This document shows, piece by piece, positions 4,965 through 18,888 of a stretch of DNA of 20,000 nt (position 1 is its first letter; every line of letters starts with the position of its first letter). Position numbers and translations under genes: made by a program. The notes under the pieces were generated by a model that saw only the letters and a program-made list of their open reading frames with translations, had not been told where the DNA came from and searched no databases. Origin of the DNA: Limisphaerales bacterium (GTDB lineage: Bacteria; Verrucomicrobiota; Verrucomicrobiia; Limisphaerales; SIBE01); contig JBGAIN010000024.1 of the NCBI GenBank assembly GCA_044225505.1, positions 52,351 to 72,350 of the forward strand, in the 5' to 3' direction.

Positions 4965-5208
4965 CCGTCTGACGAACCATCCGCTTCGGTCGCAAATCCA
5001 GGATCGCTTCGAGGCATCCTGGATGTCCCATTTCCTCGATAGGCCGGACGAATGGTGCCGAATCGTCAACTCACCGACCGCTCGTTCGGGATCCGCGTAT
5101 GGCCGCTCTCCCGGCCTCGGGAACTTCCACCTAAATGTCAGAGTCCTGCACAATCGTCTTGCCTTCCGACATATCCGAGGATGAATGATCGCCCTGCAAC
5201 TCAGGCCT

Positions 5209-8200
5209 ATGAGCTCTAACTCGGACACGATCGGCGTTTGCCAGCTCTGCGGAGCGAGTCTGCCGTCGACGACTCCAGAGGGACTCTGTCCAAAGTGTTT
5301 GCTTGCCCAAGTGCTGGCCCCCACCGAGTCCTTGCAGACTGAGATCACGGACGCGGGCGAGTCTTCAATCCCCGCATCGCCGTTTACCGGAACGCGCTTG
5401 CGCTATTTTGGCGATTACGAATTGCTTGACGAGATTGCGCGCGGCGGCATGGGGGTGGTGTTTAAAGCGCGGCAAGTCAGCCTCAATCGAGTGGTTGCCC
5501 TGAAGCTCATCAGCGCTGGCGCCCTGGCCACCACAGAGCTTGTCAAACGCTTTAAAGCTGAAGCCGAAGCGGCGGCCAGTCTTTCCCATCCGAACATAGT
5601 TCCCATTCACGAAATCGGGGAGCACCAAGGTCAGCACTTTTTCAGCATGGGCCTCGTGGAAGGCGGGGATCTTCGTGCCTTGATCGCGGATCGCCTGAAA
5701 GGAATCTCCAATCCGAGGCGGGCAGCGCAATTGGTCGCGACGACGGCGCGCGCCGTTCATTACGCCCATCAACGCGGGGTGCTTCACCGGGATATTAAGC
5801 CGAGCAATATCCTGGTCGACGCGGCTGGGGAGCCGCACCTCACGGACTTTGGTTTGGCCAAGCTGATTGCCAAGGAGAGCACGTTGACGCACACCCAGGC
5901 TATCCTTGGCACCCCGGCTTACATGGCCCCGGAGCAGGCCAGAGGCGATGCCCGGGAGGTCACGACCGCCGCCGATGTCTACGGTCTGGGAGCGGTCCTC
6001 TACGAAGCCTTAACCGGCTCCCCGCCCTTCGGCGGTGGCACCACCTTGGAGACCATTCGCCAGGTCTTGGAAGAGGAACCACGGCGTCCTTCGATCTTCA
6101 ACCCGGCGGTCGACCGGGATTTGGAGACAATTTGTCTCAAGTGTCTGGAGAAGGAACCGGCGCGACGCTACAATTCGGCGTCCGGTTTGGCCGCGGACCT
6201 GGAACGATGGCTGCGCGGCGAACCCATCATGGCCCGGCCAGCGAGCGGCCGAGAGAGGCTGTGGAAATGGGCGCGGCGGCGACCGGCGGTCGCAGCGTTA
6301 TCGGCGCTTTCGATATTCCTCCTCACGACGCTCGGGATTGCCGCAACATTGTACTCGGTCCGTCTTAGCTACGAAGCTAAGCGGCTTGAGGAACACCTTT
6401 ACGCGACCGAAATGGGCGTGGCCTTCGCGTCGTGGAATCGGGGTAATTCCACCCAGCCACGGGATCTTCTAGACAAGTATCGCCCGAAACGCGGGGGGCG
6501 GGAATTGCGCGGCTTTGAATGGTTCTACCTGGACGCACTCTGCCAGCCGCAAGAGCTTTTCACCTGTACCCCGGGCAATCAGGTTTTTGGATTGGCCTGT
6601 TCGCCCGATGGCCGTTTGGTTGCGGCGGGGCAGGCCTTTGGCGGGAGCGTGCGGTTGGTGGATCTGATCTCGCAACGAGATCTCGGCGCAATGCCCACGC
6701 CGCCGGGAAATGACGTTGCCTACTGCGTTGCCTTTGACCCAGAGGGGAGGCGCTTGCTGTCTTCAAGTATCCAGTTGAACTGCATCCGGGTGTGGGATAT
6801 GGAACGGAAAGTTCTCATCACGAATCTGGTCCACTCGCTGAACACGCTCTCGGCTGCGTTCAGCTCGGATGGGCAATGGATCGTTTCCAGTGCTTATCCC
6901 GCTATCCCAGCCAACGAGGCGGTGAACGTCGGCCTGTACGATCGGCATCGTCCCGGAGAATTGATCCTTTGGTCCGGCCAAACTTATGAGAGGCTGTTTC
7001 AGTTCCCCGAGACGACCGCGGCCTGGGAGACCGTTTTCTCAGCGGATAACCGTTGGTTAGCCACGGCCCATGCCGACGGCACGATCGCGCTCTGGGACAT
7101 GTCGACTCGAAAACTTGTCCGCTCGGTCAAGGCGCACGGCGATATCGTATCGGCCTTGGCATTCTCTCGTGACGGCCGCTGGCTGGCGAGCGGGTCTTTG
7201 GATCAGAAAATTTCGTTATGGAGCGTGCCCGATTTTCATGAGGAACCGTTAGGCTGGCAAGACCGCGTCGATTCGGTAGCCTTTTCCCGCGATGGTCAGT
7301 GGCTGGCTTCCAGTGCGCGGGACGCCACCATCAAACTTTGGAATCTGACCGTTCGCAACGCCGCCCCGACCGTTTTGCGAGGCCATAACGGCCGGATTTG
7401 GACGATCCAATTCACACCCGACGGCGAACGCCTCGTCTCCGGCAGCATCGACGGAACGATCAAACTCTGGGATTGGAAACGGTTGATCGACCAGGGGCGG
7501 CGCCCTGTCGAAACGGCGTTGGGCTTGAACTTCTCTACCAACGGCCAGCGCAACCTGAGTGAAACGGCAGAGAGGACTTTCGTTCGGGCCACCGCTTCAG
7601 AACAGGTCATTACGAATCTGCCGATCAGCAGTGCGGTTTATTCTCCAGATGGCCGCACGATTGTGGGGCTGAACGAAAACGCCCTCGAAGTCTATGATCA
7701 GGCGAGTTTTCAGCGCCTGGAGAGGATTGCCTTGGAGCGGCCGTTGGCTCCGCCTCTGCAGCTCTCACCTAAAGGAGACGCGTTGCTGGCACCGCGGCGC
7801 GGCGTTCCTGTCATTGAAATCCGCAATCCGAACCACGGATGGGCTCTGGAAGGAGAATGGGCAGCCGCGACCAACAAGGATGAATTGACGAGCTTCGACA
7901 TCTCTTCGGACGGACGCTACGCCGCCGCGCGGGCTGGGTTTCAAACCGTGGCTCTGTTCGACCTGCAACAGAAGCACTCGGGTCCCGTGTTGCAGCGACC
8001 GGACTTGAACGTGTCGCCCCTGGAAAGCTCCATCGTCTGGATCCCGCGCTCGCACCTGGTCGGCATCGGCAGCGCCAATGCCATCGTGCATTTATGGGAC
8101 GTGGACACGGGCGAAGTCCGTCTCCTGAAACTCGATGGCGGAAATGCCTGGGCTCTGGCGGCGTCTTGGGACGGCAAAACCCTGGCGGTGGGAACGCAAG

Positions 8201-8370
8201 ATGGGGTGATCAAACTGGTGAATGTGGCGGCATGGCGGGATATGGCGACTTTGAAAGGGCACCTCACCAACATTCAGCGCCTTTCATTTTCGCCTGACGG
8301 CCACATGTTACTCTCGACCGGGGGGGAGGGGCCGCGCCGCTGGAATGCTTCGATCTCGACCGACCTGTGA
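5209..8370 (+). CDS. Ser/Thr protein kinase: N-terminal Cys knuckle, kinase domain, TM helix, WD40 repeats
   Basis: CQLC...[37 protein letters not shown]; hydrophobic segment '[23 protein letters not shown]'; many 'H...FSxDG.WLASGS.D..I.LW' WD40 repeats. Start 5185 or 5209. Confidence 0.95.
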
Positions 8371-8505
8371 AACCTCGGGGCCGGACTCATCTAACGGGAT
8401 CCCGAAGCCATGGGTCGCCTGCCCGCTGCTCTGCCTTGTTCTATTCCGATTGAAGATTATTAAGCTCTGGCGTGATGATCAGCGGTTAGCGGAATCGAAG
8501 TAGGG

Positions 8506-8919
8506 ATGATTGGACTGACAAATCCTCTTCGGAGTCTGCTCGCAGTGGGGAGCGGCATGCTTTTGATGTTTGTGTGTGCCTTCCTCTTTGACCACCTCGC
8601 GCAGCTGCCGAGTCCAGTGGCTCAGGCCGTTGCGGGGAACAACCCCTATTTGGGCATGATCCTTTCTGCAGCGGCCGGATTTGGCGTGGCCCGAATCGCT
8701 CCCGACCGACGATTCGCACATGCGCTCGGACTGGTGGTCTTGTTCTGTGGAATATGCGCGGTGCAGTCATTGAACCGGATGTCTGCAGCCCCGTGGTGGA
8801 CGATTGTCTTTGGCCAAGTGCTTCCAGTTCTTGCTTGCGGTTTGGCGATTGGGGCGGGCGGTTGGCTGGGTAAATGCCACGCGGAGCTTGGAGAGCTTCG
8901 AATGGCCAACGCGCCTTAG
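8506..8919 (+). CDS. Hypothetical membrane protein (~4 TM helices)
   Basis: 137-aa ORF with four hydrophobic stretches and a purine-rich sequence (GTAGGG) just before the ATG. Confidence 0.65.
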   Translation: MIGLTNPLRSLLAVGSGMLLMFVCAFLFDHLAQLPSPVAQAVAGNNPYLGMILSAAAGFGVARIAPDRRFAHALGLVVLFCGICAVQSLNRMSAAPWWTIVFGQVLPVLACGLAIGAGGWLGKCHAELGELRMANAP

Positions 8920-9848: not shown

Positions 9849-9910
9849 GTAGAATCACCTAGCGCAGCGGACGCTGAAATCGAGTGGCTGAAATCTGTCC
9901 TCCGCCAGTC

Positions 9911-11887
9911 ATGAGCTCGTCGCCCCGTCCATCACCCGGTCCTCAATCGGGGAGCCTCTGGGAGCCGCCTACGCTCCCGCAGGTGCAGGCGTTGCTGCCA
10001 GGGTACCAATTCCTCATGTTGCTTGGGCGCGGCGGCATGGGCGCCGTGTTCAAGGCCACGCAGATTGCACTGAACCGTCCCGTCGCCGTCAAAGTGCTTC
10101 CGAGTGACCTGATGCGGGATGCGGACACGAGCTTCGCCACGCGCTTCCGTCAGGAAGCGCTCACAATGGCCCGATTGAGCCATCCTGGAATCGTCAGTGT
10201 TTTTGAAGCTGGTGAGGCGGGCCGATTTCTCTACATCGTGATGGAGTTCGTGGATGGCACGGATCTGGCGCACCGGATCCGGCGCGAAGGCAAGCTTGCG
10301 CCGGAACTTGCTATCAACCTGCTGACCCAAGTCTGTGACGCCCTCCAGTACGCGCACCAACAAGGCGTCGTCCATCGAGACATCAAGCCAGCCAACCTGC
10401 TCCTCGCCCCCGACGGCACGGTAAAGGTCGCCGACTTCGGCCTGGCCAGGCACCTCGATGACGCGCTGCTCGGCCTGACGCAGACCAATGTCGCCATCGG
10501 AACTCCCGACTTTCTTGCGCCGGAAGCTTGGACCCCCGGCACTTTGCTGGACGCGCGCGCGGATGTTTACGCCCTCGGCGTGATGCTCTACCAGATGCTC
10601 ACGGGCGAGATTCCGCGCGGTTTGTGGGAAATGCCCAGTGCCCGCGTCGGGACGGATGTGCGCTTTGACGCCATCATCGAGCGCGCGATGCAGCCCAAGC
10701 CGGACGCGCGCTACCCGTCTGCCGCCGAGCTGGGCCGCGACTTGCAGAAGATTCGGACGGAACCGAGGACGATGGCGGATCTCTCGAATCGAAGTGACGA
10801 ATCAACGTCCCAGTCGTCTGGGTCTGGGCACGCCGTTCCAAGCCGCCAACCGCGTCGTTTTGCCAGCGGCTTGGCCATCGTGGCCCTGGCTTTCATGGTC
10901 GGGGTCCTTCCGCTGGCCTGGCCTCTCCTGCGCAGTCCGAACGCACGATCAATCGCCGAAAGCCTCCTGCCTGCTCGCACGCGCCGCCCTTCGTCCAGCG
11001 TGCATGACGCTGCCCGCTGGCTCGTCCGTGAAAAGGCCGATTTCAGAATCATCAGCGAGGGACGCGAATTCGAAGTCAAATCGGAGCGAGAGATCCCTGC
11101 GGGCGACTTCAGAATTGTTTATTTGTGGTTCGATCGCTGGGCTGCTTCGCCCCCTGAGCCTCCTCCTCTCGAAGCGGAGTTCGACGTGCTGCGGGCGGTG
11201 ACCACATTACGCTTCGCCTTCCTGCGCCTGCCCGGACTTTCCGACGCGGCGTTAGCGTTCCTGGCGGGCAATACAAACCTGACGAAACTGAGCATCGCCT
11301 GTCCCGAGGCGATTACTGACGGAGTGTTCGTTCACCTCGCAGGCCTAAAGAAGCTGGAGAAACTCGAGATCGCATTTTCGCCACGAATCACCGGACGAAG
11401 ATTCGCTGGCTCCGGTTGGCTGCCGACGATTCAAGAGGTGGACTTGATCAGGACCTCGGTGGATGACGACGTGCTCCGGGTGCTGGCAGATTGCCCTCGC
11501 CTCCGGGAGCTCAAGGTGGAAGGCACAGCGATCACCCACGAAGGATTGCGCGCCCTGGCCACGGCTCGCCGGCTGTCGCTATTAAACGTGGGCGGCTGCC
11601 CGAATCTCAATGAGGACGACTTTATCGAAATCATACCTCAGTTCGCCCGGCTGAGGAAACTGGAATTGCCCTTCGCACCGTTCGGGGATGAAGCCCTGGA
11701 GGCCGTCGCTACTTTGACCAATCTTACGGAACTCCGTCTGACCGGGACGAAAGTGACCGATGCCGGCTTGGCGAAGCTTGCGCCCTTAAGCCGGCTTGAA
11801 TTGCTGGAGGTTCAACACACGAGCGTCACCGATGAGGGTATCGAAACTTTCGAGAGGGGGCACCCACGCTGCCGGACCGAACGATGA
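9911..11887 (+). CDS. Ser/Thr protein kinase with TM helix and C-terminal leucine-rich repeats
   Basis: GRGGMGAVFKA, VAVK, HRDIKPAN, DFG, GTPDFLAPE; TM 'GLAIVALAFMVGVLPLAWPLL'; LRRs such as 'LTNLTELRLTGTKVTDAGLAKL'. Start 9884 or 9911. Confidence 0.95.
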   Translation: MSSSPRPSPGPQSGSLWEPPTLPQVQALLPGYQFLMLLGRGGMGAVFKATQIALNRPVAVKVLPSDLMRDADTSFATRFRQEALTMARLSHPGIVSVFEAGEAGRFLYIVMEFVDGTDLAHRIRREGKLAPELAINLLTQVCDALQYAHQQGVVHRDIKPANLLLAPDGTVKVADFGLARHLDDALLGLTQTNVAIGTPDFLAPEAWTPGTLLDARADVYALGVMLYQMLTGEIPRGLWEMPSARVGTDVRFDAIIERAMQPKPDARYPSAAELGRDLQKIRTEPRTMADLSNRSDESTSQSSGSGHAVPSRQPRRFASGLAIVALAFMVGVLPLAWPLLRSPNARSIAESLLPARTRRPSSSVHDAARWLVREKADFRIISEGREFEVKSEREIPAGDFRIVYLWFDRWAASPPEPPPLEAEFDVLRAVTTLRFAFLRLPGLSDAALAFLAGNTNLTKLSIACPEAITDGVFVHLAGLKKLEKLEIAFSPRITGRRFAGSGWLPTIQEVDLIRTSVDDDVLRVLADCPRLRELKVEGTAITHEGLRALATARRLSLLNVGGCPNLNEDDFIEIIPQFARLRKLELPFAPFGDEALEAVATLTNLTELRLTGTKVTDAGLAKLAPLSRLELLEVQHTSVTDEGIETFERGHPRCRTER

Positions 11888-12019
11888 GGTTTGGCTCCTT
11901 CCGGGCGCCAGGTCCGAATAGCAGAATTTCATGGAATTGGGTGTCTCCTATTCGCGCCCATACTACGACCTGTGGGATGTGAATAAACTCAGAGTTGCTT
12001 TCGCCGCATTACGAGGCGG

Positions 12020-12340
12020 TCCCAACCGCAGCGGCTGCACGATCAGGCGGGTGGGATAGCCGTGAATATCCTCGACCCGCTGGAGCAAACGCCTGGTCTC
12101 CTCTAAAGAAGGACAATCCCGAACGGTTTCAGTCCGTCGGGCCCGGAGAGCGTTGACTTGGCCCAGATCGATCCTCAAGCACTCGCGGTAGAGAAACAGC
12201 AGGGCGTTGAGGGCTTGGTTCTGTGTCGACGCAAATACGCCCGCTGCGGTCAGGTGGGTGGAGGCCTTCTCGGTCTTCAACGAGAGGCGTTTTCGCTTGC
12301 AAGTCTCGCGTAATAAATGGATTGCATCCAACAGGATCAT
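12020..12340 (-). pseudogene. intI: Integron integrase pseudogene (internal in-frame deletion, 3' truncation)
   Basis: 'MILLDAIHLLRETCKRKRLSLKTEKA...ASTQNQALNALLFLYR...GYPTRLIV' aligns with the N-terminus of the full IntI at 16929-17906. It lacks 31 aa internally and the whole catalytic domain. Confidence 0.92.
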
Positions 12341-12350
12341 TCCGTAATAG

Positions 12351-12366
12351 ACGAACCACGGTTCGT
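12351..12366. promoter_or_regulatory. Palindromic operator ACGAACC-AC-GGTTCGT (GAAC-N4-GTTC, LexA-like) upstream of the intI pseudogene
   Basis: Perfect 7-bp inverted repeat 10 nt upstream of the intI start; identical to 17917-17932. Confidence 0.55.
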
Positions 12367-12384
12367 TTAATAAAATAGTTGGGC
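12365..12384 (+). other. attI site of integron 1 (core GTTGGGC at 12378-12384)
   Basis: GTTTAATAAAATA-GTTGGGC immediately upstream of intI. Identity with the second integron ends right after the GTT crossover point. Confidence 0.8.
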
Positions 12385-12557
12385 GCAAGAGCGGTGTCGG
12401 CGTCGGAATCGGGATCGGGATCGAACGGATGCGGCATGGGATTTGGTCGTGAGCAGTTGGATGTGAACCACGCTGCCATTAACTACGTGGGCCGGTTCTA
12501 TCCAGGAACGATACCGATTCCGATACCGACCCCGAAGGAAGCATGCAGTCGGCAAAT
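12379..12557 (+). pseudogene. Four-helix-bundle remnant cassette, copy 1 (diverged allele, larger internal deletion)
   Basis: ATG 12436 'MGFGREQLDVNHAAINYVGRFY' is joined directly to the GATACC/GATTCC/GACCCC arm; flanking inverted hexamer repeats. Confidence 0.7.
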
Positions 12558-12616
12558 CGCCAACCAGGCGGTTCACCGAACGCGGCTCCGCCGCGTCGGT
12601 GACCTTATCGTTCGGC
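12558..12616 (+). other. attC (short 59-nt type A)
   Basis: CGCCAAC...GGT(T)CACCGA(A)CGCGGC-TCC-GCCGCGTCGGTGACC...GTTCGGC: hairpin with two extrahelical bases. Confidence 0.9.
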
Positions 12617-12652
12617 AAAAGCAATGATTCGTCTCACCCGTCTGATCGAAGA

Positions 12653-13153
12653 ATGAGAAAGCTCCTGTTACTCCTAGGATTTCTCATCGCGGCGTGCTCG
12701 ACGCGGGGAAGCGGCTTAGACTCATTGGTCCTCGAAGGACACGAACTGCACGCCTCACTTAAGACGTGCCAGATTGACGATTCGGATCAGCACATGCCCC
12801 GTGCCTTGATCCCCAAAAGCCCGCACGTCTCGACCAACACCGCGTTCGTTGCGGCCGTTGTGCGTAATGCGTCGCGAAGCAGTCTTGGGACAGAGGGGAT
12901 TCGCTCTGCGCTCTACGCCCTTTACCGCGAAAAAAACGATCTCGGTTTCTGCGGATTGGAGGCTGTGTCTGCGGCAGAGGCTGACCGGTGGGAGGAGGCG
13001 GTGCGCAAAATTTGGGCGCATAACGTGCGCCTAGGCCTCGCGCAAGTTCACCGCAAAGGCCTGGTCCTTGTCCTCGTATGGACTCATGGCGTATCACCAG
13101 AGTGCTGGGAGGCGGCGAATGCGAAAGTGGTCGAGCGACTGGCCATTCGCTAA
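12653..13153 (+). CDS. Cassette: putative lipoprotein/exported hypothetical protein
   Basis: 'MRKLLLLLGFLIAAC' lipobox-like signal. Bounded by GTTCGGC (12610) and its exact complement GCCGAAC (13228). Confidence 0.75.
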   Translation: MRKLLLLLGFLIAACSTRGSGLDSLVLEGHELHASLKTCQIDDSDQHMPRALIPKSPHVSTNTAFVAAVVRNASRSSLGTEGIRSALYALYREKNDLGFCGLEAVSAAEADRWEEAVRKIWAHNVRLGLAQVHRKGLVLVLVWTHGVSPECWEAANAKVVERLAIR

Positions 13154-13227
13154 GCGGACAGATTCGATCTCACGCTCGGCAAGACGTCGATTTCGATGAA
13201 AACTTTCCTACTCTTCGCGCCCCAGAT

Positions 13228-13320
13228 GCCGAACAAGCCGGCTGCACCGCATCCCGCGCGTGCGCCACGATTGCATTCCTCACCTCACCGGCGCGGGGTT
13301 GGTGAGTCGAATCGTTAGCG
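13228..13320 (+). other. attC
   Basis: GCCGAAC...GGCTGCACC...CCCGCGC/GCGCGGG...GGTGAGTC...GTTAGCG. Confidence 0.88.
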
Positions 13321-13573
13321 CAAACCGATTGGTGTCCACGTCGGGGTCGGAATCGGAATCGGAATCGAAAGGATGGTGCATGGGATTTGGTCATGAGCGC
13401 TTGGATGTGTCCCGCACTTCCGTCGATTACGTGGGTTGGACCGCATCGCGGCCATGCTGACGAAACTCGGACAGCGTGGGTATACGATCCACGAGGAATC
13501 GGATGATTACCGTGGACTCAGGAACGATACCGATGCCGATAGCGACCCCGACTCCGAACGCAGCCGGAAATGA
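13315..13573 (+). pseudogene. Four-helix-bundle remnant cassette, copy 2
   Basis: ATG 13380 'MGFGHERLDVSRTSVDYVGW' fused out of frame to 'LDRIAAMLTKLGQRGYTIHEESDDY...'; inverted arms ~13340-13368 and ~13525-13552. Confidence 0.8.
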
Positions 13574-13667
13574 GCGCTAAACCAGCAGTGAACCGAGCAG
13601 CGGCGAGGCAGCGCTCCAAGATTCGGCTCGTCGCGGACGCCGCTGTCGCTCAACTTCGTCGTTCGGC
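13574..13667 (+). other. attC (~94-nt type B)
   Basis: GCGCTAAAC...GAGCAGCGGCG...CGCCGCTGTCGCTC...GTTCGGC. Confidence 0.78.
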
Positions 13668-13709
13668 GGAAAAGCTGGCCAGTTAACGGCCGCTGGCTAT
13701 TCTGGGTGC

Positions 13710-13946
13710 ATGCCGAGGATTTTCGAGAAGGACGGGTACAGGTTCTTCTTCTACAGCAACGAGCATCGGCCAATTCATGTGCACGTACGCTACGGGAGCG
13801 GTGAAGCCGTGTTTAACATTGAACCAAGAGTTGAGCTTCGAGAGTCTCAGGGGCTGAAAGTCCGAGAACTCGCGAAGGCGGAGATGCTTGCCGAGGAGCA
13901 CCGGGAGCTTATTATTGAGAGGTGGAATGAGCATCTTAACCGATAA
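13710..13946 (+). CDS. Cassette: DUF4160-family protein (toxin-antitoxin module, first gene)
   Basis: 'MPRIFEKDGYRFFFYSNEHRPIHVHVRYGSGEAVF...IIERWNEH' is the typical DUF4160 pattern. Confidence 0.9.
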   Translation: MPRIFEKDGYRFFFYSNEHRPIHVHVRYGSGEAVFNIEPRVELRESQGLKVRELAKAEMLAEEHRELIIERWNEHLNR

Positions 13947-14199
13947 CGCACGTTCGGTGGTCTATCGTGACGGGGAGATCATCGTGTCCATGCAGAACGG
14001 AGTCGAGATCCGGTTCCCGGCCGCCGATAATCCCCGACTTGCCCGGGGCACTCCGGCTCAGCTTCAGAACGTCGAGATCTCCCCTTTTGGCGTTCACTGG
14101 CCCGACTTGGATGAGGACTTGTCCTTCCGAGGCCTGCTGGCAGGCGACCATGGACAAAACCAGAACGCCGAACCAGGCGCTGGACCGAACATCCGCTAG
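13927..14199 (+). CDS. Cassette: DUF2442-family protein (partner of DUF4160)
   Basis: 'PRLARGTPAQLQNVEISPFGVHWPDLDEDLSFRGLL' is the typical DUF2442 pattern. Overlaps the DUF4160 3' end; stop codon lies inside the attC. Confidence 0.9.
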   Translation: MSILTDNARSVVYRDGEIIVSMQNGVEIRFPAADNPRLARGTPAQLQNVEISPFGVHWPDLDEDLSFRGLLAGDHGQNQNAEPGAGPNIR

Positions 14200-14240
14200 C
14201 CACGGTGTTTGCGAACACGGTCTGGTCATTGGTGTTACGC
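14167..14240 (+). other. attC
   Basis: R'' GCCGAAC complements the cassette start GTTCGGC (13661). R' GTTACGC complements the next cassette's R'' GCGTAAC (14719). Inner stem imperfect. Confidence 0.75.
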
Positions 14241-14259
14241 GTCGGTGGCTCGTTGCAAA

Positions 14260-14288
14260 TCGACACTTTGTGAAATTCCGGGTATCTT
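14260..14288 (+). promoter_or_regulatory. Putative sigma70 promoter of the hicBA cassette
   Basis: TCGACA-17 nt-TATCTT, ending 9 nt before the ATG at 14298. Confidence 0.55.
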
Positions 14289-14297
14289 GCGGTTGTC

Positions 14298-14498
14298 ATG
14301 AGAATCGAGTTAGAGCAGGAGGACGACGGCCGTTGGATTGCTGAAATCCCGGATGTTTCCGGCGCGATGAGTTATGGAGAGACCCGAGACGAGGCTTTGG
14401 CACGCGTGAAAGCCCTCGTCTTACGAGTTTTGGCTGACCGACTGGAGCACGGAGAATCGATCCCAGAGCTGAGAGAGGTCTTCGAAATCGCGGCATGA
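14298..14498 (+). CDS. hicB: Cassette: short HicB-family antitoxin
   Basis: 'MRIELEQEDDGRWIAEIPDVSGAMSYGETRDEALARVKAL' matches the HicB N-terminal fold; ATGA overlap with the downstream toxin. Confidence 0.88.
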   Translation: MRIELEQEDDGRWIAEIPDVSGAMSYGETRDEALARVKALVLRVLADRLEHGESIPELREVFEIAA

Positions 14499-14711
14499 GT
14501 CATTGGCCGTCCACCCGTGCGAGTCGCGTGCTGGCAGCGCTGCTTCGGATCGGGTGGCGCATCAAGCGGCAGGCCGGTGGGTCGCACCGACTCTTGGCTC
14601 GAGAGGGTTGGCCGGATTTCGTCTTCGCCTTTCACGACAGCGTTGAAATCGGACCGCGAATGCTTTCCAGGATCAGCAAAGCGGACAGGATTGAGACCAG
14701 AAGATCTATGA
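14495..14711 (+). pseudogene. hicA: Cassette: HicA-family toxin with apparent +1 frameshift near 14675-14680
   Basis: 'LLRIGWRIKRQAGGSHRLL...FAFHDSVEIGPRMLSRI' carries the GSH motif. The expected end 'AKRTGLRPEDL*' (stop at 14711, just before the attC) is in another frame. Confidence 0.75.
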
Positions 14712-14718
14712 ACGGGAC

Positions 14719-14811
14719 GCGTAACCAACCGGGTGCAGTGAACGGGGGAACTGCGCTGTGGTTTCATGTCGGACACGCTTGGCCCGCCGTCACTGACCCG
14801 GAACGTTAGCG
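14719..14811 (+). other. attC
   Basis: GCGTAAC..CCGGGT(G)CAGTGA(A)CGG...CCGTCACTGACCCGG..GTTAGCG. Confidence 0.92.
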
Positions 14812-15074
14812 CAAACCGATTGGCATCCACGTCGGGGTCGGAATCGGAATCGGAATCGGAATCGAAAGGATGGTGCATGGGATTTGGTCATGAGCGGTTG
14901 GATGTGTCCCGCGCTTCCATCGATTACGTGGGTTGGACCGCATCGTGGCCATGCTGACGAAACTCGGACAGCGTGGGTACACGATCCACGAGGAATCGGA
15001 TGATTACCGTGGACTCAGGAACGATACCGATGCCGATAGCGATTCCGACCCCGAAGCAGAAGCCGCCGGCAAAT

Positions 15075-15133
15075 CGGCAACCAGACGGTTCACCGAACGC
15101 GGCGCCGCCGCGTCGGCGACCTTATCGTTAGCA
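15075..15133 (+). other. attC (type A)
   Basis: CGGCAAC..GGTTCACCGAACGCGGCGCCGCCGCGTCGGCGACC..GTTAGCA; near copy of 12558-12616. Confidence 0.82.
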
Positions 15134-15606
15134 AAGCCGCATCGTCGGGGTCGGAATCGGAATCAAATCGGCAACCAGATGTGTTCCGCACTTCCATCGA
15201 TTACGTGGGTTGGACCGCATCGTGGCCATGCTGACGAAACTCGACCTTATCGGATGATTAGCGCACGATACCGATTGGCATCCGACTTCCAGGAAGCCGA
15301 AGCCCGCCGGAATCGGAACGGTTCACCGAACGCGGCTCCGCCGCAACTCTGTGTTAGCGCAAACCGAGTGGCGTCCACGCAGGGTCGGAATCGAATCGAA
15401 AGGATGGTCATGGGATTTGGTGAGCGCTTGGATGTGTCCTGCGCTTCCATCGATTACGTGGGTTGGACCGCATCGTGGCCATGCTGACGAAACTCGGACA
15501 GCGTGGGTATACGATCCACGAGGAATCGGATGATTACCGTGGATTCAGGAACGATACCGATGCCGATAGCGATTCCGACCCCGAAGGAAGCAAGCCGCCG
15601 GCAAAT

Positions 15607-15665
15607 CGGCAACCAGACGGTTCACCGAACGCGGCGCCGCCGCGTCGGCGACCTTATCGTTCGCG
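15607..15665 (+). other. attC (type A)
   Basis: Same hairpin as 15075-15133, ending GTTCGCG. Confidence 0.82.
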
Positions 15666-15917
15666 CAAACCGATTGGCATCCACGTCGGGGTCGGAATCG
15701 GAATCGGAATCGAAAGGATGTGCATGGGATTTGGTCATGAGCGCTTGGATGTGTCCCGCACTTCCATCGATTACGTGGGTTGGACCGCATCGTGGCCATG
15801 CTGACGAAACTCGGGCAGCGTGGGTACACGATCCACGAGGAATCGGATGATTACCGTGGACTCCGGAACGATACCGATGCCGATAGCGATTCCGACCCCG
15901 AACGCAGCCGGAAATGA

Positions 15918-16011
15918 GCGCTAAACCGGCAGTGAACCGAGCGGCGGCGAGGCGGGCGCTACAAGATTCGGCTCGTCGCGGACGCCGCTGTCGGTCAGCT
16001 CATTGTACGCC
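15918..16011 (+). other. attC (type B) with non-canonical R' (GTACGCC)
   Basis: Near copy of 13574-13667; the conserved GTT reads GTA at 16005-16007. Confidence 0.7.
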
Positions 16012-16056
16012 GAAAGTCAGCTCGCCTCCTGCGTTCAGTCTTGGTAGCATGATTCC

Positions 16057-16248
16057 ATGAGGACGCGGTTTACGTATTGGAAAGAGGCCGACGGGCGCTA
16101 CTTGGGGTACCTGAACGACTACCCTGACCACTGGACGCAAGGCGAGAACCTCGAAGACCTCAAAGAGCACTTACGAGACTTGTTCCAGACATTCAGTTCC
16201 GAAGAGATTCCGGGAATCAGGAAAGTCGAGGAGTTAGAGGTCGTGTGA
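16057..16248 (+). CDS. hicB: Cassette: short HicB-family antitoxin
   Basis: 'YWKEADGRYLGYLNDYPDHWTQGENLEDLKEHLRDL' HicB-like pattern; GTGA overlap with the toxin. Confidence 0.85.
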   Translation: MRTRFTYWKEADGRYLGYLNDYPDHWTQGENLEDLKEHLRDLFQTFSSEEIPGIRKVEELEVV

Positions 16249-16430
16249 AGCGAATCGACCTGGTGCAGCGTTTGGAGCAGATGGGCTGCAAGTTGCTCAG
16301 ACACGGCAGCAGGCACGACATTTATCACAACCCCACGACGGGTCGGTCGGAACCAGTCCCGCGGCATCGCGAGATCAACGAGATCCTGGTCAAGAGGATT
16401 GTCCGCCGACTGAGTCCAAATGAAGAATGA
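16245..16430 (+). CDS. hicA: Cassette: HicA-family mRNA interferase toxin
   Basis: 'MKRIDLVQRLEQMGCKLLRHGSRHDIYHNPTTGRSEPVPRHREINEILVKRI' is a typical HicA. Confidence 0.92.
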   Translation: MKRIDLVQRLEQMGCKLLRHGSRHDIYHNPTTGRSEPVPRHREINEILVKRIVRRLSPNEE

Positions 16431-16433
16431 ATC

Positions 16434-16537
16434 CGCGAACCAGCCGCTGGAGCCAATGACGAGGAGCGGGTCACGCTGCTGTTCCAAATTGAACGCCTCT
16501 GGCGCGCTCCTCGTCATGGCTCAGCTCATTGTTAGTG
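16434..16537 (+). other. attC (last of array 1)
   Basis: CGCGAAC..GCTG(G)AGCCA(A)TGACGAGGAGCG...CGCTCCTCGTCATGGCTCAGC..GTTAGTG. Confidence 0.92.
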
Positions 16538-16928
16538 TTAGATAAAGCAGCTCAAGTATGAACGCAGACCGCGCGAGTTACTGCGATCAGCTCGGGACGC
16601 CACCCAAGAAGGGGCAATACATTGGCTTGCGCGTCATTTTCGACATTTTAGTGGTTTGGATCGCATCAGCTGTAGGCTGAGACAAAAGTCGTCAACTTTC
16701 AGACAGGTAACTGCCTGCAAACCGGACGACCGCGAGCTAGGCGCAACTCCTCAAACGAACAAAAGGAACGGTTCCGCCGCCAGATTCTCACACAAAACTC
16801 TCCAAGGGAGCTCTGAAAACCGCCCTACCGTTCATCGGATTGTAGTTGCTTTGGAATTCACGAAAGCGGCCGTCCCCCAATCGTCAGGAAGCAGACCGAC
16901 CAGATTGGGTCTTGGGCGGACCTGCTGG

Positions 16929-17906
16929 TCAGACGCCGGAGTAGCCAAACTGCTCGAGAGGGCTGCAGACCCGCTCGACCTCCGGATGGAGGTAGCCCAT
17001 TGTCGTCTCGATGTGGGAGTGTCCGAGCACGACCTGCACGTCCGGAACCAGCGCTCCGTGTTGGAGGGCATGGGTCGCAAACGCGTGTCTCAAACAGTGC
17101 GGGGTGATACCGTCCAAGCCGCACGAGGAAGCAGCCCTTCTCAGGGCTCGTTGAACGTTGGCTTCATGGCAACGCCATCGCACGACTTCTTTACTGCGAC
17201 TGTCGCGGCAGGTTGTTCTAGACGGGAAGAGCCAGGCCCAACGTTCCGAGTATCGAGCTCGGGGGTATTTGCGGGCCAGAAGCCCTGGCAGTGGCACAGG
17301 AATCCCATTCGCCCGGTCTGCTGCGGATACAGCTTTCGCCACGTTAAGCTGTTGTTCCAGTGCGGGGCGGAGGCAGGATGGGATTTTGACGACTCGATCC
17401 TTGTTCCCTTTGGCTTGATGGATGACCAGACGGTTGCTCGCCAAGTCGACATCTTTGATCCGGAGGTTCAGGGGTTCTGTGACTCGCAGCCCGCAACCGT
17501 AGAGCAGATGGACAATGAGGCGGGTTGGGTATCCGTGGAGGTCTTCGACTCGCCCCAGCAAAAGGCGCGTTTCATTCCAGGAGGGACAGTCTCTGACTGT
17601 TTCCGAGCGTTTGGCACGGAGGGCATCCACTTTACCCACTTCGACCCGGAAACAGGTTCGATAAAGGAACAAGAGGGCGTTGAACGCTTGATTTTGGGTG
17701 GAAGCGGAGGCACCTCTGGCGGCCAAGTGGGTGAGAAAGGCTTCCATTTTTCGCTCCCGGGTGGCGGAAGCCAACTGGGAGGAGCGCCCTTTGAGAAAGT
17801 GGCCAAAATGACTCACCCAGTGGGTGTAGGCCTTCTCGGTCTTGATGGAGAGGCGTTTTCGTTTGCAAGTCTCGCGCACTAAATGGATTGCATCCAAAAT
17901 ATTCAT
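16929..17906 (-). CDS. intI: Integron integrase (tyrosine recombinase), complete
   Basis: 'ASTQNQAFNALLFLY'; catalytic R (GCGLR), K (KGNKDR), HxxR (HCLRH), H (LGH), Y (TMGY); IntI-specific insertion 'VPLPGLLARKYPRA...WAWLFPS'. Confidence 0.97.
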   Translation of the reverse strand: MNILDAIHLVRETCKRKRLSIKTEKAYTHWVSHFGHFLKGRSSQLASATRERKMEAFLTHLAARGASASTQNQAFNALLFLYRTCFRVEVGKVDALRAKRSETVRDCPSWNETRLLLGRVEDLHGYPTRLIVHLLYGCGLRVTEPLNLRIKDVDLASNRLVIHQAKGNKDRVVKIPSCLRPALEQQLNVAKAVSAADRANGIPVPLPGLLARKYPRARYSERWAWLFPSRTTCRDSRSKEVVRWRCHEANVQRALRRAASSCGLDGITPHCLRHAFATHALQHGALVPDVQVVLGHSHIETTMGYLHPEVERVCSPLEQFGYSGV

Positions 17907-17911
17907 GCGGT

Positions 17912-17940
17912 AATATACGAACCACGGTTCGTTTAATAAA
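17912..17940 (-). promoter_or_regulatory. Putative intI promoter with LexA-like palindrome (17917-17932) in the spacer
   Basis: Minus strand reads TTTATT-AAACGAACCGTGGTTCG(17 nt)-TATATT-ACCGC-ATG. Confidence 0.55.
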
Positions 17941-18418: not shown

Positions 18419-18888
18419 GTGAAGCATTTGCTCGCAACTGTGGTCCTGCTGTTCGGCGTGGCATGCGCATCAGATCGAGCACCGAAACCCTTCGCTTTGC
18501 CTTCGGACACCAGAGGACCTTTTCCGGCAGACTCGCTTTCACTTCCGCGTCTGGGGGTCAGTGGAGTTNNNNNNNNNNNNNNNNNNNNNNNNNNNNNNNN
18601 NNNNGGCTCCAAAGGGAAGAGGTGAAGACGCTTTCTTATGCATACAATCGAAAAATCATTGGAAATTGTGGCGGTCCCGAGCCGCCGAAGGAGAATGGGG
18701 ATTGGTGGACGGTTACCTGCGGTGATGGCTATATCTGGCACGAGGTCGGTCGGCTATGGTTATCGAAGAACGGAAGCAACGTGGTCTATGAGGTTACCGG
18801 AAGACATAAGAGCGATAAGACCCGGCGCGTAATGAGGAGTCTCCGCTATGAGTTCGGCGAACCAGCGGCTGGAGGGAACGCCGAGTGA
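18419..18888 (+). CDS. Cassette: putative lipoprotein interrupted by an assembly gap (N at 18569-18604)
   Basis: GTG start 'MKHLLATVVLLFGVAC'. Frame differs across the gap, so the true gap length is unknown. R' GTTCGCC (18412) matches R'' GGCGAAC (18856), so both sides probably belong to one cassette. Confidence 0.62.

Follow-up and report, generated by a model that had tools for sequence, protein, structure and literature searches.

Gene-less integron cassettes with inverted hexamer arms, putatively derived from a four-helix-bundle protein gene, in a Limisphaerales bacterium

The stretch of DNA analysed here (the window, 20,000 nucleotides; positions 52,351 to 72,350 of the forward strand of contig JBGAIN010000024.1, assembly GCA_044225505.1) comes from a Limisphaerales bacterium and contains an integron cassette array, array 1. 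This array runs from an attI-like site, with its crossover at 12378/12379, to a last attC at 16434-16537, and ten cassettes can be delimited in it by eye: six related units, one open reading frame (ORF) that belongs to no family, and three toxin-antitoxin-like gene pairs. A preliminary description of this DNA had taken the six units to be non-coding copies of a gene for a four-helix-bundle protein that had lost its middle. The feature is real, but its local copy number was overstated and its scope understated, since members of the family are found throughout the genome and again in other organisms. The units are also bounded by inverted hexamer arms, which had been overlooked.

All units except copy 4 follow a single plan: a left arm built from TCG-N3 hexamers, a stretch resembling a ribosome site with a start codon, a gene remnant, a right arm, and an attC. 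The right arm is an imperfect reverse complement of the left one (for example, 15022-15054 and 14832-14864 in copy 3), and no arm-loop-arm unit is found in 3 Mb of shuffled genome. Copy 1 (12379..12610; this and all following units are on the forward strand), the first cassette of array 1, is of form B and has arms at 12397-12423 and 12509-12535, an 85-nt remnant, and a 59-bp attC at 12558-12616 (score 12.0). Copy 2 (13315..13661) is a native form A, with arms at 13341-13367 and 13525-13557, a 157-nt remnant, and a 93-bp attC at 13575-13667 (score 10.3). Copy 3 (14806..15127), with the arms given above, a start codon at 14877, and the junction TTGG at 14933-14936, and copy 5 (15354..15659), with its right arm at 15552-15584, are mosaics in which a form-A body is joined to a form-B attC tail (15075-15133 and 15607-15665, respectively; score 9.8 each). 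The head of copy 5 is damaged by several small deletions that are absent from the other seven aligned form-A copies. Copy 6 (15660..16005) is again a native form A, with arms at 15686-15712 and 15869-15901; its attC, at about 15919-16011, has a degenerate R' (GTA for GTT), was missed by the scan, and is read by its likeness to the attC of copy 2.

Although the assembly does contain the six starts that had been described (12379, 13315, 14806, 15128, 15354, and 15660), six does not stand as a firm number. Copy 4 (15128..15353) lacks an intact right arm, its attC scores 2.8, and 160 of its 206 21-mers occur nowhere else in the genome. It is a patchwork in which words of 7-26 nt from the other copies, their order scrambled, surround a single true block of 54 nt; its first half and middle contain words taken from positions 266 and 314 of copy 3, and a word from position 17 lies near its end. 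A true deletion keeps word order, while automated gap filling or read correction can scramble it, as appears to have happened here, and copy 4 was probably made during assembly. (Low cover was set aside as evidence on copy 4, since holes prove nothing and repeats are placed once; the doubt comes from the word analysis. For the record, depth in three DNA runs is 0, 0, and 0 at 15220-15370, 0, 0, and 0.88 at 15069-15219, and 5.5-8.7 in most unique stretches; the values of 9.9, 9.1, and 15.1 at the mosaic-to-copy-6 junction are no measure of copy number.) Bridging of the junctions was judged in contigs of these three DNA runs, which come from three studies (one may be the source sample), using a 31-letter rule and the 26 listed pieces of 381. 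The junction from copy 1 into the next cassette is bridged in all three runs, entry into copy 2 and exit from it each in at least one of three, the junction from a mosaic tail into copy 6 in at least two of three, and the exit from copy 6 in all three; among the listed pieces, contigs extend 18-29 letters into copy 3, which is below the 31-letter rule. Since the junctions of copies 1 and 2, one mosaic, and copy 6 are bridged, at least four units are real; four can be regarded as firm, and five or six are possible.

The ends of the units are those of integron cassettes. Form A cassettes start with GTTAGCGC and end with GCGCTAAC, form B cassettes start with GTTGGCG and end with CGCCAAC, and most A and B copies begin at G|TT and finish in a complementary R''. 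In the window, complementarity between R'' and the cassette start is seen by eye in copies 2 and 6 and, with one extra base, in copy 1, but not in the mosaics, copies 3 and 5. By a heuristic of our own rather than IntegronFinder (an earlier version, which missed 7 of the 12 sites in the window, was dropped), attC scores of 9.8-14.3 follow seven units, versus a null maximum of 7.7 in 250 windows; copies 1, 2, 3, and 5 score 9.8-12.0, copy 6 is degenerate, and copy 4 has no acceptable site. Judged from sequence, on the features compared (attC, R'', and the attI/intI context), the units are gene-less integron cassettes. The suggestion that they are MITEs (miniature inverted-repeat transposable elements) is not supported for this genome, where integron crossover points form the ends of the units and enclose the inverted arms: in the window copies there are 17-27 nt between the 5' end and the arms and a further 21-26 nt between the arms and the attC, so that the arms are not terminal. 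The units do resemble MITEs in being short, non-coding (through frameshifting deletions), and multi-copy, with 29 units in the genome.

Array 1 lies downstream of an intI remnant and an attI-like site, as expected for integron cassettes. The remnant (12035..12340, reverse strand), which heads the array, is the 5' part of an integron integrase gene whose catalytic half is missing; it corresponds to residues 1-133 of the intact integrase at 58% (tblastn) and gives a weak TIGR02249 match of 36.7 bits. The attI-like site (12352..12379, forward strand) has the palindrome CGAAC-N4-GTTCG at 12352 and its crossover, G|TT, at 12378/12379, and a 132-nt repeat there is 89% identical to the site adjoining the intact integrase. 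That integrase, IntI (16929..17906, reverse strand; TIGR02249, 268 bits with a cut-off of 265), heads array 2, lies 400 bp from array 1, and is the sole full-length intact copy among 13 genome matches of its kind. It is likely to be the trans-acting recombinase for array 1. At least six more attI-like platforms have broken or absent integrases (contigs C311, C292, C152, C330, C273, and C162), most of them followed by attC arrays, and the single intact IntI may serve all such platforms of the genome. An identical palindrome, CGAAC-N4-GTTCG, stands at 12352-12365 and 17918-17931, each time between the integrase start and the attI-like site; we take it to resemble a Gram-positive-type LexA box, and it may place the integrase under SOS control.

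The other cassettes of array 1, all on the forward strand, are an ORF without a Pfam family (12611..13314; probable start 12654, stop 13153, attC 13228-13320), a toxin-antitoxin-like DUF4160 (DhiT-like) and DUF2442 gene pair (13710..14199, with a match to the DhiT model that is under the cut-off), a HicB-HicA toxin-antitoxin cassette (14298..14811, attC 14719-14811), and a second HicB-like/HicA cassette (16057..16537) that includes the last attC of the array. RNA run X18 yields two short contigs only, on 16081-16444, which have no bearing on expression of the units. Elsewhere in the window, a run of N at 18570-18605 inside array 2 is a scaffold gap, one of 41 in the assembly, and upstream of the integron two Ser/Thr-kinase-like genes (5185-8370 and 9884-11887) are recognizable by eye, one with WD40-like and one with leucine-rich-like repeats.

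The preliminary description was right that the remnants are the two ends of a four-helix-bundle gene insofar as both are homologous to an intact PF05635 protein; as fragments alone they have no profile match. The protein in question is encoded at locus L045, an intact relative in another genome (PF05635, 65.5 bits), to which the 5' remnant (14877-14936) is identical at 16 of 20 residues (E 5e-12) and the 3' remnant (14933-15064) at 18 of 24 (E 3e-12); the central core of the gene is absent from the units. Because the remnants by themselves match neither Pfam nor NCBIfam, the family assignment rests on the parent, and by this homology the units are best described as derivatives of PF05635/TIGR02436 genes rather than as members. 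A PF05635 search of this genome returns five genes. One of them, at the start of contig C99, is a direct relative, its DNA matching the two ends of the units at 87% and 81% identity; it scores 60.6 bits against PF05635, has a stop at codon 20, which makes it a broken parent, and is followed by an attC that is weak at best (score 7.0). An intact family gene with TCG-N3 arms is present on contig C100, and a PF05635 gene at C56:6784-7077 is boxed by heptamer, not hexamer, inverted arrays.

Relative to the C99 gene, the deletion in form A is 241 nt and that in form B (copy 1) is 313 nt, and both shift the frame. Copy 1 thus has the different, larger deletion that had been ascribed to it. Form B, whose 5' remnants were matched to the family gene by tblastn, has 5' codons that are gone from form A, and some 3' codons of form A are in turn missing from form B; the two are therefore separate deletions, and the protein was lost at least two times independently, as had been claimed. 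The start codon is lost or changed in five of seven form-B copies. The TTGG overlap reported at the form-A junction can be derived from composite parents, but only 1 nt of it is measured against C99 alone. A general microhomology rule at the deletion junctions is not borne out: overlaps with the nearest parents are 0-5 nt, mostly 0-2 and 5 once, with poor fits for form C and for loci L123, L125, and L127. An inner stem between the ORF ends that would guide the deletions was rejected, as pairing exceeded that of codon-shuffled controls in 5 of 20 parents (mean 4.1 versus 7.4 pairs).

Across the genome, junction motifs identify 29 units, nine of form A, seven of form B, seven of form C, and six of form D (copy 4 is included; a loose form-B motif gives 15 matches, of which the eight outside the listed units were left out of the count). 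The 16 form-A and form-B units are spread over ten contigs, and partial copies are found on C55, C82, C221, and C74 and at the end of C273. This agrees with the claim that the units were multiplied with their attC kept and have a selfish, non-autonomous character. Divergence of the loop rises from 0.046 in form A to 0.179 in form B and 0.296 in form C, as in successive waves. Forms C and D are without cassette ends (one D unit scored 8.0) and occur mostly in tandem runs (C34, C53, and C79); form D shares the arms only, and its descent from the gene is unproven.

Several neighbourhoods of these copies deserve mention. At C79:6000-6900 and 8300-8760 a 200-bp unit, which has the same hexamer arms around a loop of 63 nt, is repeated in two intergenic tandem runs that are similar to clusters of repetitive extragenic palindromic (REP) sequences. 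The loop of a form-C unit at C5:3253-3382 appears by eye to be inverted relative to its cassette-like flanks, as if it had been flipped between the arms. Directly after the R'' of form-B copies, a second hexamer array cuts the attC at C148:3620-3730 and C324:750-840; it is of the ATCGTA type, like the arms of the intact gene on C100. Another dispersed repeat family adjoins the form-B copy of C252 (C252:19921-20152), with 17 matches on 14 other contigs, and the stretch that follows the copies on C132 and C252 presumably, from its appearance by eye, is the remnant of a transposase gene of the REP-associated tyrosine transposase (RAYT) type. At C309:1-200 the end of an ORF, which we assume to be a GxxExxY-family gene, is followed by a short repeat arm and a 59-bp attC of the form-B type.

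The arms change less than what they enclose. In form B, the p-distance is 0.063 and 0.000 for the arm cores versus 0.179 for the loop, and 3 of 30 core columns are variable versus 35 of 85 loop columns (p 0.0015); in form C, the corresponding distances are 0.18 and 0.056 versus 0.296. A similar pattern is seen in 20 copies of genome G068 (discussed below), which were collected with a search pattern that did not contain the right arm. In all three sets the TCG/CGA triplets change less than the loop and the bases between triplets vary, whereas slippage alone would be expected to homogenize whole hexamers. The middle spacer base is mostly mismatched (17% Watson-Crick in the units of this genome), and 45 of 61 left arms and 47 of 61 right arms have 5-7 triplets. 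Covariation between partner positions of the arms is clear in intact genes (0.56 versus 0.35) and is absent among gutted units. Folded as RNA, copy 2 pairs its arms with a z of -3.44, and the inverted repeats form a long stem, as do those that end the intervening sequences (IVSs) of 23S rRNA. Nevertheless, the alternative that the unit is a structured RNA is not borne out: G-U pairs are no commoner than A-C apposition (50 versus 55 in intact arms and 15 versus 16 in the units of this genome, inner register), and so give no sign that one RNA strand folds; Rfam covariance models find 0 matches in 12000-17000 at E up to 1; and a scan finds no promoter-like or terminator-like site inside the units.

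Comparable elements occur in other genomes. Among 60 relatives searched, none has the unit, and three arm-sized matches only are found, in G032; the exact form-A junction gives 0 loci in metagenomes, in a searched set that may not include the records of this genome. With the open part of the C99 gene as query, intact relatives were collected from other genomes (80 loci, the best of 561), of which 54 have both arms, 14 a nearby mini-hairpin, and 9 an attC-like score of at least 8 after the gene. Cassette ends of the GTT/AAC type of at least 7 bp are present in 9 of 59 intact relatives versus 1 of 216 shifted controls (Fisher p 5e-6, with kin that are not independent), and locus L048 has a 59-bp attC like that of form B. 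The pattern of the gutted gene is found at 13 metagenome loci, or ten after removal of three duplicates, with nine junction types, one of them doubtful; the pattern fixed the loop length, so that the sizes of these units are uninformative. Of these loci, L123 shares the cassette ends of form A, and L133 has a full attC. Within the phylum, 15 of 401 genomes hold mini-hairpins versus 0 in a reversed control (the counts, which overlap, do not give copy numbers). In G068 there are 34 starts of a gene that was gutted separately, and the 30 loci examined (L150-L179) show MITE-type outer inverted repeats of about 20 bp, at the 5' end in 22 of the 26 where this end was available and at the 3' end in 10 of 16. 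Most of the examined units lie between outer inverted repeats of insertion-sequence type, with traces of cassette ends; the G068 unit can be read as a cassette turned MITE. G468, of the same order as the present bacterium, has four gutted copies in two forms, three of which begin with the same GTT cassette start and all of which have a similar attC-like tail, two scoring as attC; G451 has one gutted copy with a full attC. (The matches in G475 and G689, two of the three other matching genomes, were discarded because they look like chance; the reversed control also gave four matches.) The gutted copies in G068, G468, and G451 argue that gutting and multiplication recur, on different vehicles.

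Taken together, these observations suggest that what spreads is the hairpin and not the protein. The reading we favour, with a probability of about 0.55, is that an integrase has spread the units, as selfish cassettes devoid of a gene, by copy-and-paste, and that selection acts on their DNA hairpin. The ancestor would be a cassette in which a PF05635 four-helix-bundle gene was boxed by inverted TCG-N3 hexamer arms; such cassettes exist intact in other bacteria, and a broken copy survives in this genome. The middle of the gene was deleted, at least twice here and, separately, many times elsewhere, to leave arm, remnant, arm, and attC. Following known integron chemistry, IntI would excise the bottom strand of such a cassette and reinsert it by copy-and-paste at attI, in arrays, and at lone chromosomal sites; a copy-and-paste bias of IntI (PMC8024014) and insertion at attG and lone sites (as cited in PMC12614218) have been reported. 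The outcome would be the 16 form-A and form-B units on ten contigs, as a young A wave and an older B wave, with A/B mosaics made by recombination in the shared right arm, and with forms C and D multiplying without cassette ends, mostly by tandem duplication. The arm cores appear to be under selection after gene loss. More tentatively, this selection would act mainly at the DNA level, through fold-back on the arms: in a single-stranded cassette folded on its arms, no more than about 25 nt would separate the base of the stem from the upstream attC on one side and from the cassette's own attC on the other. In the most speculative part of the proposal, such fold-back would favour excision, more so with a short loop, and short-loop hairpin cassettes would outcompete others.

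A number of points weigh against this reading. Excision and insertion of the units by IntI are predicted. The attC is cut off after R'' in six A/B copies (C114, C209, C132, C148, C252, and C324), and the bottom strands of three of the four firm-copy attC sites fold no better than shuffles, which indicates that these are not unusually strong sites. Because 13 of the 29 units (forms C and D) and 50 of the 59 intact relatives are without cassette ends, the arms did not evolve for integrons; and because the vehicle in G068 has a MITE-type end, not an attC, fold-back next to an attC is not the whole reason for arm conservation. The arm regions behind the arm-versus-loop contrasts were set by regular expression, which favours conserved cores, in copies that are not independent, and form A is too young for the contrast to be drawn. 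Host-level selection on the hairpin is possible. A gutted unit stands first in four of the eight attI-like platforms (recognized by likeness), but this excess is suggestive only, with a p of 0.06-0.11 for an assumed share of 20-25%. (A chain census of cassettes, 2/69, was not used as the denominator, since it counts both strands and misses most gutted units.)

Other explanations account for parts of these data. With cassettes in the minority among the intact relatives, and ends of another kind in use in G068, the arms may have a more general role. The hairpin could thus be the non-autonomous partner of an intact four-helix-bundle protein, an Avd-like pentamer that binds TCG-N3 arrays in trans and promotes their copying or survival, in the manner of RAYT and REP doublets (REPINs), and integrons, MITE ends, and tandem duplication would be mere vehicles. 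Conservation that falls on periodic TCG/CGA triplets with an unpaired middle spacer base looks more like a binding code than a plain stem, and the usual arm length of 5-7 triplets, the intact TCG-N3-armed gene kept on C100, the mini-hairpin near 14 of 80 intact loci, and the reported pentamer and its likeness to Avd (PMC4990558, PMC10053308) all fit; five of five mini-hairpin-rich genomes keep PF05635 genes, a count that has no control set. Binding of the arms by the protein is nonetheless putative, and the direct parent on C99 is broken. Also counting against this explanation, we know of no catalytic activity in the PF05635 family, and we consider it unlikely. The wider formulation, in which the TCG-N3 hairpin is the selfish unit, the Avd-like pentamer its trans partner, and gene-bearing and gutted elements the autonomous and non-autonomous classes of an undescribed, enzyme-less mobile family, is likewise doubtful.

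Less likely again is a cis-acting RNA element maintained by the host: whether as an RNase III site or as an untranslated block, the hairpin would damp or process the transcripts from an array rich in toxin-antitoxin genes, especially when it stands first. The fold of the unit, the first position in half of the platforms, and the toxin-antitoxin-like nature of three of the four other array 1 cassettes would suit such a role; RNase III excises the related rRNA IVS, whose ORF is decaying and has a 176-bp deletion in one strain (PMC4990558), and poorly translated cassettes are reported to lower downstream expression (PMC11511950). This reading is at odds with the lack of G-U bias, of Rfam matches, and of internal promoter- or terminator-like sites, with the seemingly inverted form-C loop, with a first-position excess that is not significant, and with promoter-like sites at 13888 and 14260. 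Toxin-antitoxin cassettes, moreover, usually have their own promoters. Least probable is that the units are neutral debris, tandem-repeat hairpins prone to slippage, deletion, and duplication that have no role, with the run at 14806-16005 partly a product of assembly. Such debris could give rise to the tandem arrays on C79, C34, and C53 and beside intact genes elsewhere, to the patchwork of copy 4, to the decayed start codons of form B, and to junctions with little overlap. However, the arm cores stay conserved where the loops and the adjacent spacer bases do not, a recombinase is needed to scatter units with exact cassette starts over many contigs, and contigs from other runs bridge at least four of the units.

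One paper states the general view that cassettes are free of pseudogenes (10.1101/2023.11.21.568050), and how the four-helix-bundle genes of IVSs arose and how they move is described as open (PMC4990558). The present family allows the route to be followed from a cassette with an intact gene to a multiplied one without a gene, a route taken repeatedly in unrelated genomes, and it points to the arms as what is selected. The natural short and long versions bear on two questions: whether the body of a cassette can raise its own excision rate, and whether a PF05635 protein binds the arms. A hairpin with an Avd-like partner, if true, would explain the travel of rRNA intervening-sequence genes and would represent a cassette that improves its own recombination by folding.

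By the features compared, the units are not MITEs, rRNA intervening sequences, or genes of the family. Gene-less integron cassettes have been reported in Vibrionaceae, Treponema, and Xanthomonas (10.1101/2023.11.21.568050; PMC8876359), and the units resemble them in having an attC without a usable gene; some of those are also said to stem from degenerated genes. They differ from those that act as promoters or regulatory RNAs, as the units have no promoter-like site, and from the gene-less cassettes so described in general in that the parent gene is identified, the body is a hexamer-arm hairpin, and the loss is repeated. With the 23S rRNA IVSs of Coxiella and Leptospira (S23p, PF05635/TIGR02436; PMC4990558) they share the protein family, inverted repeats, short tandem repeats ahead of the start codon, and an ORF in decay, with a large stretch deleted from its interior; unlike them, they lie in a cassette array, not in a 23S rRNA gene (12000-17000 has no Rfam match), have hexamer rather than heptamer repeats, are present in dozens of copies, and are borne by an attC. 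As with MITEs (PMC10969869), the units are short, non-coding, multi-copy, hairpin-forming, putatively moved in trans, and divided into age-graded subfamilies, but their ends are integron crossover points rather than transposase ends, and MITE-type outer repeats are confined to the G068 version. REP dimers, REPINs, and REPtrons (PMC3733652) are likewise palindromic intergenic units, single or in tandem clusters, that are related to a hairpin-flanked gene; here, in contrast, the flanked gene encodes a four-helix-bundle protein and not a RAYT, and the arms are periodic hexamers with regular mismatches. (Counting gene matches only, not flanks, the genome has nine Y1_Tnp matches, none of them on the contig of the window.) A likeness to Avd, the accessory protein of diversity-generating retroelements, follows from its reported homology to PF05635 (PMC10053308), but no reverse-transcriptase link is seen for the units: the two RVT_1 genes of the genome are on C140 and C83, neither of which carries a listed unit. 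No published account of hexamer-armed four-helix-bundle cassettes or of their gutted derivatives was found in the literature covered, mostly titles and abstracts, with supplements outside. Gene-less cassettes and the decay of IVS ORFs are already in print.

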